From the NCBI GenBank assembly GCA_035623755.1, contig DASPSV010000012.1:3641-67640 (forward strand): a stretch of 64,000 nt of DNA, given 5' to 3'. Of this stretch, positions 45,041 through 49,187 are shown one piece after another. This DNA is from Gemmatimonadales bacterium. Its GTDB lineage: Bacteria > Gemmatimonadota > Gemmatimonadetes > Gemmatimonadales > JACORV01. The notes under the pieces are model-generated. The model was given only the letters and a program-made list of their open reading frames with translations, had not been told where the DNA came from and searched no databases. How positions within the stretch are numbered: position 1 is the stretch's first letter; every line of letters starts with the position of its first letter. The position numbers and the translations under genes were made by a program.

Positions 45041-46612
45041 CTAGCGGGCCTGGCGCGGGACCAGCAGCGCCACCGGCAGGATCATCTCCTCCGGCGAGGC
45101 GCCGCCGTGCAGGAAGGCGCCGCGGTAGCGGGCCTGGTACTCGCGCAGCTTGGTCGGGTAGACGAAGAACCGGTCCTCGGTGGCGATGACGCAGCGCACC
45201 CCGAGGCCGCGCGGGGGCAGGCCGTAGGTCCGCAGATCCTCGACCGTGATGGCCGACGCCGCGTCCTCGGGCCGCAGGTCCTCGCCGAACTTGAAGCGGA
45301 GGTTGTTGGTGGCGTCCCGCTTGGCGTACACGGTGGCCGGGCTCAGGCAGTGGATCGAGCCGTGGTCGCTGGTGAGCACCACCGGCACGCGCCGCCGCTC
45401 CGCCTCGACCAGCGCGGCGCGGAGCGGCGAGCGCTCGAACCAGGCGCAGGTCAGCGCCCGCAGCGCCGGGGCGTCGCGCGCCACCTCGTAGAGGATGGCG
45501 TTCTCCGAGCGGCCGTGGGTGAGCTGGTCCACGAAGTTGAACACCATCGCCGTCACGCCGTCCTGCGCCAGCATCGACGGGAGCCGCCGCTGCACGTCCT
45601 CGCCCTCGCTGGTGCCGAACAGCTTCTCGTAGCGGCACGGCACCGGCCGGCCGGTCACGCGCTCGAGCTGCCGGCCCAGCAGGTCGTGCTCGTGCGCGTT
45701 GAGGCTGTCCTCCTCGTGCTCCGTCCACCACCCGGGATACTGGGTCGCGATGTCCCGCGGCAGCAGCCCGGCGAAGATGGCGTTGCGGCTGTACGGCGTC
45801 GCGCTCGGGAGGATGCTGAAGTAGTGGCTGGTCTCGACGTCGAACAGCGGCGTGACCTGCGGCAGCAGCGCCTCCCACTGGTCCAGCCGCAGGCAGTCCA
45901 CCACCACGAACAGCACCCGCCCGTGCTCGCGCAGCACCGGGAGGACCATCTCCTCGACCACGTCGGACGAGAGCGCCGGCCGGTCGGCGTCCGGCTGCGC
46001 GATCCAGCGCGGGTAGTTCCGCGCGACGAACCCGCCGAAGTCGCGCCGCAGGCCGCCCATCAGCGCGTGCAGCGCCTGCCCCAGGCCCGGCTCCGCCGCC
46101 TCGGCCAGCTTGAGGTCCCACTGCATCAGCTCGCGCCACACGTCGATCCACTCCCGCCAGCCGAGCGCCGTGCCGCGCCGCGCCTCCAGCTCCCGGAACC
46201 GGGTGACGAACTCGCGCGAGAGGTGCTGCTGGCGGATCCGGTCGCCCTCGAGCAGCCGGGTGACGACCGAGAGGATCTGGCGGGGCTGCAGCGGCTTGAC
46301 GAGGTAGTCGTCCACCGACATCCCGATCGCCTCGCGCAGCACCGCGGGGTCCTCGGACTTGGTGACCATCACGACCGGCACCGCGGGATCGAGCTCGCGG
46401 ATGGCGTGGAACAACTCGAGGCCGCGGCGCCCCGGCATCTGCTCGTCGACCAGCACCAGCCCGTACGCCTGGCGCCGCAGCAGCTCCAGCGCGTCGTCGC
46501 CGTGGGCGGCGGCTGCGACTTCGTATCCCTGGTCGGTGAGGAACCGGCGGTGCGACTCGAGGCTTTCGATCTCGTCGTCCACCCACAGGATGCTCTTGGG
46601 GCGCGAGGCCAT
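45041..46612 (-). CDS. response regulator with PglZ (alkaline-phosphatase superfamily) output domain, PorX-like
   Basis: REC domain (ILWVDDE...LVDEQMPG...VMVTK). It is followed by a large domain with PglZ-type features (FVVVDCLRLDQW, PYSRNAIFAGLLP, TSDHGS). Confidence 0.8.
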   Translation of the reverse strand: MASRPKSILWVDDEIESLESHRRFLTDQGYEVAAAAHGDDALELLRRQAYGLVLVDEQMPGRRGLELFHAIRELDPAVPVVMVTKSEDPAVLREAIGMSVDDYLVKPLQPRQILSVVTRLLEGDRIRQQHLSREFVTRFRELEARRGTALGWREWIDVWRELMQWDLKLAEAAEPGLGQALHALMGGLRRDFGGFVARNYPRWIAQPDADRPALSSDVVEEMVLPVLREHGRVLFVVVDCLRLDQWEALLPQVTPLFDVETSHYFSILPSATPYSRNAIFAGLLPRDIATQYPGWWTEHEEDSLNAHEHDLLGRQLERVTGRPVPCRYEKLFGTSEGEDVQRRLPSMLAQDGVTAMVFNFVDQLTHGRSENAILYEVARDAPALRALTCAWFERSPLRAALVEAERRRVPVVLTSDHGSIHCLSPATVYAKRDATNNLRFKFGEDLRPEDAASAITVEDLRTYGLPPRGLGVRCVIATEDRFFVYPTKLREYQARYRGAFLHGGASPEEMILPVALLVPRQAR

Positions 46613-46679
46613 CGGGGCAACCTAGCCGCTCCCCCGGCCGGGCGCTACATTGCGCGCGTCCCCGCTCGACGCCGCGCCC

Positions 46680-47075
46680 ATGAGCCATCCAGCCCTCGCG
46701 ACCACCGACGACGCGTTCGCCAAGGTCCTCGCGGACACCGCCCGCGGACCGCAGCGCGACGGCGCGTTCGCCCTGTGGCTGGTGGTGCGCGCCGCGCTCT
46801 CGGCGGCCCCGCCCGCCCCCCCGGCGGCGCGGCAGGCGGACCGGCTCCGCGCGCTGGCCACGCGGATCCGGAGCCTCAACGCCCCGGCGCCGCTGCGCCG
46901 CTCGCTCGTCGCGGCGATCGCGGACCTCGGCGCGCCCCGCGCCCCCGCGGCCACGCTGGTGCTCGCGGCCCTCGCGGCCCCCGCCGCCGAGTGCCTCGGC
47001 CGCACCGCCGCCGACGCGGTGCAGGCGGCTGCGCGCGCCGCCCGCCCGGGCAGTCGGTCCGCGGCGTCCCCGTGA
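46680..47075 (+). CDS. hypothetical Ala-rich helical protein, translationally coupled to the DnaB-like gene
   Basis: The ATG at 46680 lies within ORF 46650..47075. Its stop overlaps the GTG of the next gene (GTGA). I recognised no motif. Confidence 0.4.
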   Translation: MSHPALATTDDAFAKVLADTARGPQRDGAFALWLVVRAALSAAPPAPPAARQADRLRALATRIRSLNAPAPLRRSLVAAIADLGAPRAPAATLVLAALAAPAAECLGRTAADAVQAAARAARPGSRSAASP

Positions 47076-47941
47076 AGACCCCGCCCGACATTCCGCGGCG
47101 CTCCAACCCGGTGACCGACGTGGTCGGCCGCGTCGACGCGCGGCTCGGCGGCGCGGCGAGCGGCGACACCGTCGCCACCGGCTTCCCCAGCGTGGACCGG
47201 ATCCTGGGCGGCGGCCTGCGGCAGGGGGACCTGGTCGTGCTCGGCGGCGACGTGGGCGTCGGCAAGTCGTCGTTCGCGCTCGCGATCGCGTTGCGCATCG
47301 CCGAGCGCGGCGAGAGCGCCGCGTTCCTCTCCGGCGAGATGGACGAGGACCGGCTGTGGGAGCGGGCGCTGGCGATCGAGGCGCGCACCCGGCTCGACGA
47401 CATCCGCCGCGGCACCGTCTCCGACGAGACCCGCGCCGCGCTCGGCGCCGCCGCGGTGCGGCTCCGCCACCGCCCGCTCGTCTACCGCCCCATGGCGGCG
47501 CGCTCCTTCGAGGAGGTGGCCGACCGCATCCGCGCGCTGCACACGCCGCTGGTCGCCGTCGACTACCTGCAGCTCCTGCCGCCGGCCCGGCTCGAGATGG
47601 AGCGCGAGGAGCAGGACGCCGTCGCCGTGCGGCTGCTCAAGGAGATCGCCCTCGACGCCAACGCCGCGCTGCTGCTGGTGGCGCAGCTGCCGCGGCTCAA
47701 CGCGAAGCGCCGCGACCCGCGGCCCGCCCTCGACGACTTCGCCGCCCGCGGCGCGGTGAAGTACCACGCCGACGTGGTGCTCGGCCTGTACCGGGAGGAG
47801 ATGTACCAGCTGACCCGCGGGGTGGAGGGCGCGACCGAGCTCATCGTGGCGAAGAACCGCCACGGCCCGACCGGCTTCGTGGACCTCTACTTCTACCGGG
47901 AGTGGATGCGCTTCGAGGACATGCTCGAGCCGGACCGCTAG
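47072..47941 (+). CDS. DnaB-helicase C-terminal (RecA-fold) domain protein lacking the N-terminal domain
   Basis: TGFPSVDRILGGGLRQGDLVVLGGDVGVGKSSFALAIA covers the DnaB linker plus Walker A. VAVDYLQLL is Walker B-like, and the product ends ...ELIVAKNRHGPTGFVDLYF, which is DnaB-type. It is only 289 aa. Confidence 0.75.
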   Translation: MKTPPDIPRRSNPVTDVVGRVDARLGGAASGDTVATGFPSVDRILGGGLRQGDLVVLGGDVGVGKSSFALAIALRIAERGESAAFLSGEMDEDRLWERALAIEARTRLDDIRRGTVSDETRAALGAAAVRLRHRPLVYRPMAARSFEEVADRIRALHTPLVAVDYLQLLPPARLEMEREEQDAVAVRLLKEIALDANAALLLVAQLPRLNAKRRDPRPALDDFAARGAVKYHADVVLGLYREEMYQLTRGVEGATELIVAKNRHGPTGFVDLYFYREWMRFEDMLEPDR

Positions 47942-48348
47942 CGCGGACCCCGCCGCGGCGTGGTGTCGGCCGCCGGCCCGGGGCCCGCCGCCGTGAACGC
48001 CACCCGGCTCTGCGGCCCCTGCGCGTCGATCTGGATCCACAGCGGCAGGCCGCGCCGCGTCAGGTACAGGCTCACCCGCAGCGTGTCGCCCAGGTCGCTC
48101 ACGACCCGCCAGCCCATCGCCGGCATGCTGTGCCGGTAGAACCGCGCCACCGAGTCGATGGCCGCCGGCGCGATCAGCACCACGTGCTGCACCTCCGGCG
48201 TCCCGGTCGTGTCCTCGAGGAGCGACTGGGCCAGGTAGGGCACGTCGAACAGGTAGTTCGGGCGCTGGGCGCGGGCCTTCGGCGCGGGCTCGCCGCAGGC
48301 CGCCGCGCACGCGGCGAGGGTGGCGATCAGAACGGAGCGGGCGGTCAT
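47938..48348 (-). CDS. hypothetical lipoprotein
   Basis: MTARSVLIATLAACAAACG has lipobox-like LAAC/AAAC sequences. No other motif was recognised. Confidence 0.5.
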   Translation of the reverse strand: MTARSVLIATLAACAAACGEPAPKARAQRPNYLFDVPYLAQSLLEDTTGTPEVQHVVLIAPAAIDSVARFYRHSMPAMGWRVVSDLGDTLRVSLYLTRRGLPLWIQIDAQGPQSRVAFTAAGPGPAADTTPRRGPR

Positions 48349-48443
48349 GGCGGCATAGTATCGGAGCGCGCTCCGGCGCGGTCAAGGCGTCGTTGCTGCG
48401 CCTTTGGCCGCGGACTACATTAGCCGTATCCGCGGAGGCTCCG

Positions 48444-49187
48444 GTGGCCGGCCACAATGTCTGGAAGAAGATCAAGCGCAAGAAGGCCGTAACTGACGCC
48501 CGGCGCGGCGCCCAATTCACCAAGATCATCAAGGAGATCACCGTCGCCGCACGCCAGGGCGGCGGCGACCCCGCGGGCAACGCGCGGCTCCGCGTCGCCA
48601 TCGAGGCGGCCCGGGCGGCCAACATGCCCACGGACAACGTCGACCGTGCGATCAAGAAGGGCACCGGCCAGCTCGAGGGCGTGCAGTACGAAGAGGTCGC
48701 CTACGAGGGCTACGGCCCCGGCGGGGCGGCCATCTACATCGAGGTCACGACCGACAACGCCAAGCGCACGGTGGCCGACATCCGCCACCTGTTCACGCGC
48801 TACGACGGCAAGCTCGGCACCACCGGCTCCGTCGCCCACCTGTTCGAGAAGCGCGGGGAGTTCTACGTCCCGGCCGCCAAGTACGACGAGGACGCGACCA
48901 TCGAGGCCGCCCTGGAGGCCGGCGCGCTCGACGTGGTGAAGGAAGGCGAGCACTACCTCGTCACCACGGCGCCGCACGACTTCCACGCCGTCCAGGAAGC
49001 CCTCAAGAAGCACCACATCGCGTGGGAGTCGGCCGAGATCGCGATGATCCCCCGCTCGACGGTGCGGGTCGAGGGCCGCGACGCCGAGAAGCTGGTCAAG
49101 CTGATGGGGGAGCTCGAGGAGCACGACGACGTGGCCCGGGTGTCCTCCAACTTCGACGTCGACCTCGAGGCGCTGGCCGAGGTGTGA
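48444..49187 (+). CDS. YebC/PmpR family DNA-binding transcriptional regulator
   Basis: The GTG at 48444 lies 5 nt after a GGAGG sequence. HNVWKKIKRKKAVTDARRGAQFTKIIKEITVAAR...NMPTDNVDRAIKKG is the family signature. Confidence 0.88.
   Translation: MAGHNVWKKIKRKKAVTDARRGAQFTKIIKEITVAARQGGGDPAGNARLRVAIEAARAANMPTDNVDRAIKKGTGQLEGVQYEEVAYEGYGPGGAAIYIEVTTDNAKRTVADIRHLFTRYDGKLGTTGSVAHLFEKRGEFYVPAAKYDEDATIEAALEAGALDVVKEGEHYLVTTAPHDFHAVQEALKKHHIAWESAEIAMIPRSTVRVEGRDAEKLVKLMGELEEHDDVARVSSNFDVDLEALAEV

Follow-up and report, generated by a model that had tools for sequence, protein, structure and literature searches.

The stretch of 64,000 nucleotides (nt) analyzed here (contig DASPSV010000012.1, assembly GCA_035623755.1, Gemmatimonadales bacterium, 73.8% GC; called the window below) carries two overlapping genes on the plus strand. 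The product of the first gene is a basic, alanine-rich helical protein of 131 residues. The second gene encodes a nucleoside triphosphatase (NTPase) of 289 residues, referred to as the ATPase, which corresponds to the C-terminal domain of the helicase DnaB. The gene pair is a vertically inherited operon of the core chromosome across Gemmatimonadota and is often translationally coupled. We interpret the ATPase as an ancient, fast-diverged paralogue of DnaB, of which only the linker helix and the RecA-like motor domain are left. The small protein falls outside all described families. We give a slightly better than even chance to the proposal that the pair forms an accessory complex, composed of the DnaB-derived motor and its dedicated basic helical partner, which would act in DNA repair or recombination and not as the replicative helicase.

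The DnaB-derived ATPase and its helical partner

The gene of the small protein extends from an ATG codon at position 46680 to a TGA stop codon at 47073–47075 (46680–47075, plus strand). The ATPase gene begins with a GTG codon at 47072 and ends with a TAG stop codon at 47939–47941 (47072–47941, plus strand). The stop codon of the small gene and the start codon of the ATPase gene share the four nucleotides GTGA. The boundaries of the open reading frames (ORFs), encoding 131 and 289 residues, bear out the GTG-on-stop overlap described in an earlier sequence-only reading of the window. The ORF list also offers a TTG codon at 46650 as an upstream start of the small ORF; the ATG at 46680 was assigned as the start because 24 of the 27 small-protein homologues begin with MSHPAL. 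Similarly, the GTG at 47072 was taken as the start of the ATPase because its orthologues share the N-terminus M/V-x-x-PPDIPRR. Owing to the GC content of 74%, long spurious ORFs of 944 and 680 residues cover both genes in other frames or on the other strand (45107–47941, plus strand; 46622–48664, minus strand; and others). Some database entries of the ATPase family (P0364 and P0288) resemble such calls and may stem from frameshifts or read-through.

The two genes are genuine and ancient. The GC content at third codon positions (GC3) is 0.96 in the small ORF and 1.00 in that of the ATPase. A search with the single small-protein query returned 172 homologues, and the profile search 584. This coding signal and conservation identify the small ORF as a true gene.

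The Pfam model PF03796 (DnaB_C) matches residues 34–283 of the ATPase with an E-value of 6e-49, and Pfam gives no match to PF00772, the N-terminal domain of DnaB. The DnaB model TIGR00665 aligns to the ATPase at model positions 170–433 only, with a score of 165.9 bits and a cut-off of 385.25. The scores of all other DnaB equivalog models are far under their own cut-offs. No N-terminal domain of DnaB is encoded in the window, nor, in 89 related loci, within approximately 6–10 kb around the pair or as far as the contig extends. Together, the PF03796 match, the lack of a PF00772 match, and the start of the TIGR00665 alignment at position 170 uphold the description of the protein as an ATPase made of the C-terminal domain of DnaB alone. 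The nearest solved structure by sequence is that of Aquifex DnaB (PDB 4nmn, residues 163–431, E-value 1.6e-34). The AlphaFold model of the ATPase has a predicted local distance difference test (pLDDT) score of 89.3, and Foldseek aligns it to C-terminal domains of DnaB, linker helix included, over 277–299 columns with query template modeling scores (TMq) of 0.82–0.87.

The P-loop of the ATPase (Walker A, GGDVGVGKSS) is formed by residues 58–67 (47243–47272, plus strand) and contains lysine K65, which is kept in the clade of the window. The catalytic glutamate E89 is part of an SGEM motif (residues 87–90), the Walker B strand VAVDYLQLL spans residues 161–169 and includes D164, and the glutamine sensor Q205 lies in the sequence AQLPR. 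The arginine-finger segment AKNRHGPTG corresponds to residues 260–268 (47849–47875, plus strand), and its K261 and R263 are invariant throughout the family. The window ATPase therefore has all five NTPase motif residues (K65, E89, D164, Q205, and R263), and the motifs quoted in the sequence-only reading (Walker A, VAVDYLQLL, and IVAKNRHGPTG) were all found in it. Judged from these motifs, the ATPase of the window clade is probably an active NTPase.

The equivalent of the linker helix of DnaB is PVTDVVGRVDARL, residues 13–25 of the ATPase (47108–47146, plus strand). In DnaB, the linker helix docks on the neighboring subunit and thereby holds the ring together. The segment is helical in the AlphaFold model and has a lowered pLDDT, as expected for a helix that packs in trans. 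Its pattern, [LIV]xx[LIV][LIV]xR[LIV][DE], persists in the most divergent members of the family. A linker helix had been anticipated at the start of the ATPase and is present there; however, the segment TGFPSVDRILGGG (residues 36–48) already belongs to the RecA-like domain, as its first motif, and is not the linker.

Alignment of family members with 40 canonical DnaBs identified a replacement of the ssDNA-contact and H4 motif, here called the DNA-contact motif, which reads LRESGxIEQDADVV in canonical DnaB and FAARGAVKYHADVV in the window (47738–47779, plus strand). At the position of LRESGxIEQDAD, the window ATPase has FAARGAVKYHAD, and the family-wide consensus is F/L-G-x-x-G-A-V-x-x-x-A-D. 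A regular-expression count over the representatives returned 79 with the canonical DNA-contact motif and 21 with that of the family. The C-terminus DLYFYxxWxRFEDMxxPDR is found family-wide and is characteristic when compared with the 40 canonical DnaBs. The linker-helix pattern, the Walker B aspartate, an RPxLxD motif, and the arginine finger are invariant across the family.

The small protein has a mass of 13 kDa, an alanine content of 33%, and an isoelectric point (pI) of 11.7, within a family range of 9.5–12. The pI of the ATPase is 6.2, and the charges of the two proteins are thus complementary. The homologues of the small protein, all from Gemmatimonadota, are stand-alone proteins of approximately 121–155 residues annotated as "hypothetical protein". 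Their conserved motifs are RGPxRDGxFALWLVVRAAL and SLNAPAPLRR. AlphaFold, supplied with 27 homologues, predicts a six-helix bundle with a pLDDT of 89.2 and a predicted template modeling score (pTM) of 0.84. The alanine content and the confident six-helix model agree with the earlier expectation of an alanine-rich, all-helical protein. No match of the small protein was found among the Pfam, NCBIfam, PHROG, and PADLOC families, and its model has no match in BFVD.

The sequence-only reading had offered two origins of the small protein: a split-off or replaced N-terminal module of DnaB, or an unrelated partner. The profile of the small-protein family has 0 matches among PDB sequences at E≤10. A Foldseek search of its model against the PDB, which includes dozens of full-length DnaB chains, gave a best E-value of 0.67 and TM-scores of at most 0.37. 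Comparison with approximately 80 canonical DnaB N-terminal regions using hhalign resulted in a probability of 0.3%. Since the small protein resembles the N-terminal domain of DnaB neither in sequence, nor in profile, nor in fold, we reject the split-off module, and the unrelated partner is the alternative that survives. A split or frameshifted dnaB was likewise discarded: the two-gene layout is kept down to 40% identity, no upstream frameshift explains it, and the small protein bears no relation to the N-terminal domain of DnaB.

Distribution of the pair, loss of the P-loop lysine, and flanking elements

Relatives of the ATPase are encoded in at least 461 species-level genomes in a scan that considered one genome per species; the locus counts given below cover the best 80 of these genomes. 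The 80 loci, two of which (L069 and L073) are on complete chromosomes (CP070666.1 and CP070716.1), belong to Gemmatimonadota save two unclassified records and one contig filed under Anaeromyxobacteraceae. The latter contig (locus L026, DATIWK010000092.1), filed as an Anaeromyxobacteraceae metagenome-assembled genome (MAG), encodes an ATPase 88% identical to that of the window and yebC-ruvCAB neighbors with identities of 87–92%; it is probably a mis-binned Gemmatimonadales contig. Among the matches listed, at least 120 are orthologues of the ATPase, with identities of 69–100% and lengths of 286–298 residues, and the organisms, where given, are Gemmatimonadales or Gemmatimonadota MAGs. Within a set of 1.84 billion representative sequences, the family of approximately 290-residue proteins reaches down to approximately 40% identity, below which are ordinary DnaBs of 430–480 residues that are 33–43% identical.

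The gene order in the 80 loci is nearly invariant: msbA and porX on the minus strand are followed on the plus strand by the small gene, the dnaB_C-type gene, and, further downstream, yebC, ruvC, ruvA, and ruvB. The order is unchanged at ATPase identities of 88%, 69%, 48%, and 43%, and the two most divergent loci, located on short contigs, keep at least the pair of the small gene and the ATPase gene. According to tblastn, the small gene is located upstream of the ATPase gene in 70 of the 80 loci, and five of the other ten are too near a contig end. The spacing from the stop codon of the small gene to the start codon of the ATPase gene in these 70 genomes is −4 or −1 nt in 26, 1–12 nt in 20, 21–102 nt in 18, and more than 500 nt in six. 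The two genes thus overlap or are separated by at most 12 nt in 46 of the 70 genomes, and the −4 or −1 spacing in 26 of them supports the translational coupling inferred earlier from the window. Same-strand insertions between the two genes, encoding proteins with signal-peptide or lipoprotein-like N-termini, were observed in loci of Gemmatimonadaceae type (L030, 5316–5981; L061, 5161–5954; L047, 4255–4725; and also L074, L076, and L080).

In 32 of 75 loci, yebC follows the ATPase gene in the same orientation at a distance of at most 150 nt, which shrinks to 18–32 nt in ten of those. The mean p-distance over 42 genomes is 0.37 for both the ATPase and ruvC, and 0.49 for the small protein, which evolves faster. 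Given the single locus in at least 461 species and a divergence like that of ruvC, the ATPase is under purifying selection.

A divergent form of the small ORF, designated type 2, has the pattern PFxxxxxFPFxxL...GGxRE...AAKxWL...ALP. It lies upstream of the ATPase gene in four of the ten loci without a tblastn match to the small gene (three Gemmatimonas MAGs and locus L083), and also in loci L008 and L009, whose ATPases lack the P-loop lysine. The alignment of type 2 with the type 1 small ORF of the window is collinear but weak (hhalign E-value 0.06).

Sixteen representatives of divergent clusters formed at 50% identity have a readable P-loop. The Walker A lysine is kept in seven of them, and is a threonine, cysteine, or serine in the remaining nine. 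The lysine-less P-loops read GAGTS, GAGCS, or GSGSS, and some of these proteins also lack the catalytic glutamate or the glutamine sensor. The members without the lysine are database entries P0249, P0255, P0256, P0261, P0267, P0270, P0285, P0289, and P0343, and those of loci L008 and L009. In the lineages that lost the P-loop lysine, the partner gene remains upstream, joined by porX if the contig is long enough (L008). From their sequences, these lineages look like natural pseudo-ATPases. It may be the ring architecture and its interfaces that the family conserves, and not necessarily the turnover of ATP.

The loss of the lysine bears directly on the question of whether the ATPase could be the replicative helicase, with an N-terminal collar supplied in trans by the unrelated small protein, or with dnaB split in two. 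The window clade does keep all catalytic motifs and the linker helix, the partner is all-helical and approximately the size of the DnaB N-terminal domain, some sources name the ATPase "replicative DNA helicase", and a full-length DnaB of the same genomes was not retrieved. However, the P-loop lysine is missing from many members that have the same partner at the same locus, which rules them out as helicases, another sequence stands in place of the DNA-contact motif, the score is far under the DnaB equivalog cut-off, and the partner has neither homology nor a fold match to the DnaB N-terminal domain. In addition, an intein-containing DnaB (COG0305) was reported in Gemmatimonadetes (PMC4760082), as were DciA helicase operators (bioRxiv 10.1101/2022.01.24.477630), and G. 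aurantiaca is within the data set of a further study (PMC5109545). Inteins are missing from the family described here, whose members include proteins of Gemmatimonas MAGs. Because P-loop-dead members cannot be helicases, the DNA-contact motif is replaced, and DnaB and DciA are reported in Gemmatimonadetes, it is very unlikely that the ATPase is the replicative helicase, and we regard the collar in trans, or a split dnaB, as the least credible of the explanations weighed here. A canonical DnaB is presumably encoded elsewhere in the genome.

The flanks of the pair are formed by housekeeping genes: a penicillin-binding protein gene, tyrS, a lipid-A acyltransferase gene, msbA, porX, yebC, ruvCAB, queA, tgt, yajC, def, and fmt. 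The divergent porX of the window (45041–46612, minus strand) encodes a full-length PorX-type response regulator with receiver and PglZ domains, recognized by NF052313 with 515 bits at a cut-off of 300. This gene, adjacent to the pair in 64 of the 80 related genomes, implies that regulation of type IX secretion exists in these Gemmatimonadales.

The 67-nt gap between porX and the small gene contains a promoter-like element, AACCTAGCCG-N15-GCTACATT, in which TAGCCG and TACATT are separated by 17 nt (46619–46651, plus strand). The element occurs once in the window, with none expected from shuffled sequences, and is found at the same position in 19 loci (L001–L004, L010, L011, L013–L021, L023–L025, and L027). 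A generic sigma-70 scan does not flag TAGCCG-17-TACATT. Its conservation and position make it a possible promoter of the pair. The left half of the element, 6–10 nt from the start codon of porX, could also serve the translation or regulation of porX. A LexA-box-like operator was sought in the porX/small intergenic region, and no palindrome was seen.

Downstream of the pair, a convergent ORF of 136 residues with the lipoprotein-like N-terminus LIATLAACAAAC (47938–48348, minus strand) overlaps the stop codon of the ATPase gene with its own by 4 nt. It is preceded by a promoter-like site of its own, TTGACC-17-GATACT (48385–48357). Only 24 of the 80 relatives have a homologue of this ORF, which is thus an insertion of variable occurrence that separates the ATPase gene and yebC. 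As this convergent gene parts the pair from yebC, the pair is a bicistronic unit of its own in the window.

Proposed accessory function and competing explanations

We propose that the motor domain assembles into a DnaB-like ring by means of its linker helix. The basic helical protein would be a dedicated subunit, or an adaptor, loader, or cap, which could bind the ring, nucleic acid, or both. The ring would be a working NTPase in the window clade. The complex would be an accessory in DNA transactions. Recombination, repair, or fork processing is the most likely of these, given that the pair is often co-oriented, and probably co-transcribed, with yebC-ruvCAB. Both the oligomerization and the DNA-related role are what we infer from the protein and its neighborhood.

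Several points weigh against an accessory motor. The frequent loss of the P-loop lysine argues for a scaffold or regulator better than for a motor, and because so many members lack this residue, the conserved core function would need no ATP hydrolysis. The proposal presumes a physical interaction between the small protein and the ATPase. In six of the 70 genomes, the two genes are set apart by one or two lipoprotein-like genes, and the coupling is therefore not obligatory. Synteny is expected anyway among related genomes, so it is weak evidence of a function. The link of the pair to ruvCAB in the window is one of neighborhood only, and the adjacency to divergent porX is equally constant. The candidate full-length DnaB representatives with a stated origin came from other phyla (Acidimicrobiales and Halorhodospira) or, in one case, from a phage contig. 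Mirror-tree analysis yielded partial correlation coefficients (r) of 0.34 for the small protein and the ATPase, 0.36 for the small protein and porX, 0.40 for the ATPase and porX, and 0.38 for the known partners ruvA and ruvB. The presumably meaningless control pair ruvB and msbA reached 0.41, which is no lower than the value for the small protein and the ATPase, and the analysis thus decides nothing.

The main rival explanation is a regulatory scaffold or pseudo-ATPase acting off DNA, as a KaiC-like switch or as a platform tied to the divergently encoded PorX, and so to the control of type IX secretion, or to other signaling. The porX gene is directly upstream of the pair, in divergent orientation, in 64 of the 80 loci, including the P-loop-less L008, and the 67-nt control region between them contains a strictly conserved motif. 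Furthermore, the Walker A lysine is gone in about half of the divergent clusters, with the catalytic glutamate or glutamine sensor missing from some, the DNA-contact motif of DnaB is lost family-wide, Pfam returns a weak KaiC/ATPase match (E-value 5e-8), and the mirror-tree coefficients among the small protein, the ATPase, and porX are 0.34–0.40. Nevertheless, Gemmatimonas MAGs have the pair without an adjacent porX, the likeness of the ATPase to DnaB exceeds that to KaiC by approximately 40 orders of magnitude, and the mirror-tree control is equally high. We know of no PorX partner that resembles either protein. We therefore consider a scaffold off DNA unlikely, although worth keeping in mind.

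We speculate, as a more daring and somewhat less probable variant, that the pair is a helicase-derived complex that controls another machine. It would be a DnaB-like ring lacking the collar, the canonical DNA-contact loop, and often ATP hydrolysis, which the basic orphan subunit caps or loads. Such a regulator could co-assemble with the true DnaB, or gate it, through the interface of the linker helix and C-terminal domain, or it could hand junction DNA to RuvAB. If true, the complex would represent a new class of pseudo-helicase regulator.

Both DnaB-like helicases that lack the N-terminal domain and small proteins that bind helicases are characteristic of phages and plasmids. The pair could accordingly be a domesticated replication remnant of a phage or plasmid, consisting of a DnaB-like helicase and a small loader or inhibitor, as in G40P and G39P of SPP1, with little or no function left. 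The ATPase has strong matches to DnaB-like PHROG families (phrog_19, E-value 2e-49), and the catalytic motifs erode in some lineages. However, searches of 2.9 million viral contigs and 72,556 plasmids found no member of the family, the best relatives there being ordinary DnaBs approximately 35% identical. No integrase, terminase, or repeat signatures were found near the pair, and the small protein matches no viral structure in BFVD. The ATPase gene is fixed at one locus in at least 461 species, with the ruvC-like p-distance of 0.37 and under purifying selection. We give little credence to a remnant.

Defense and mobile elements, the settings in which the sequence-only reading had placed truncated ATPases of this kind, were rejected after the PADLOC, viral-contig, and plasmid searches: PADLOC gave noise at the level of the P-loop (at most 20.5 bits), and the locus is a syntenic part of the core. 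Its companion statement, that mobile-element genes are missing nearby, agrees with the housekeeping flanks. One unrelated protein was noted on a low-GC Logan contig: P0250, of 573 residues, consists of two tandem DnaB_C domains without an N-terminal domain and does not belong to the Gemmatimonadota family.

DnaB paralogues without the N-terminal domain are usually set aside as helicases of phages or plasmids, or as fragments produced by annotation. Here, a truncated DnaB and its orphan partner are fixed on the chromosome throughout a phylum, beside Holliday-junction genes. The finding corrects a systematic mis-annotation, as the ATPase is called "replicative DNA helicase" in several databases. 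In some lineages the ATPase site decays naturally, which provides a clean case of a ring helicase turned to a different, possibly non-catalytic role. Two uncharacterized, phylum-wide proteins of a poorly studied soil phylum gain a first testable hypothesis; the finding has no bearing on any long-standing open question.

Comparison with known helicases, loaders, and related ATPases

A literature search for the pair or the family found no description of either within the library searched. The names given to the ATPase in the sources are "replicative DNA helicase", "AAA family ATPase", and "DnaB-like helicase C-terminal domain-containing protein". The likeness of the small ORF to G39P of SPP1, P of phage lambda, DciA, and the N-terminal domain of DnaC is positional only: it is located upstream of a DnaB-type motor and co-expressed with it. 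Searches of Pfam, NCBIfam, PHROG, the PDB, and BFVD found no match of the small ORF to helicase loaders or operators (DnaC/DnaI, DciA, lambda P, and G39P), and thus neither an AAA+ nor a DUF721/KH-like domain, although a function analogous to theirs is conceivable.

The ATPase shares with DnaB (TIGR00665/COG0305; PDB 4nmn, and 4esv from G. stearothermophilus) the linker helix and the RecA-like C-terminal domain, at approximately 33–43% identity. The window protein also shares with DnaB the Walker A and B motifs, the catalytic glutamate, the glutamine sensor, and the arginine finger. The family, however, has no N-terminal collar and primase-binding domain, and has a dedicated orphan partner gene instead. 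It has F[AG]xxGAVKYHAD in place of LRESGxIEQDAD, GGDVGxGKS in place of aaRPsMGKT, and SGEM in place of SLEM. The ATPase scores under half of the equivalog cut-off, and many members of its family are P-loop-dead. It thus falls outside the DnaB equivalog on account of its missing N-terminal domain, its score, and its DNA-contact motif.

RadA/Sms and the ATPase are both DnaB-related ATPases of the RecA fold with a KNR(F/H)G arginine finger, and the ring of RadA is linked to the processing of Holliday junctions. In contrast to RadA, the ATPase has neither an N-terminal zinc finger nor a C-terminal Lon-like domain, for which its 289 residues leave no room. The RadA model TIGR00416 covers residues 34–102 only and scores 39 bits, with a cut-off of 403. 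The KaiC family model PF06745 matches the ATPase with an E-value of 5e-8, and the KaiC equivalog scores 26 bits with a cut-off of 408. The TIGR00416 and KaiC equivalog scores rule out the identity of the ATPase with either RadA/Sms or KaiC.

A parallel in architecture, though not in context, is offered by the helicases of phages and plasmids that lack the N-terminal domain, with which the ATPase has in common a stand-alone RecA-type core of approximately 270–290 residues (phrog_243, E-value 3e-31 over the full length). RSF1010 RepA and the helicase domain of T7 gp4 are, we presume, comparable DnaB-like helicases without that domain. The helicases of this group replicate mobile replicons, whereas the family described here resides at a fixed locus of the core chromosome.

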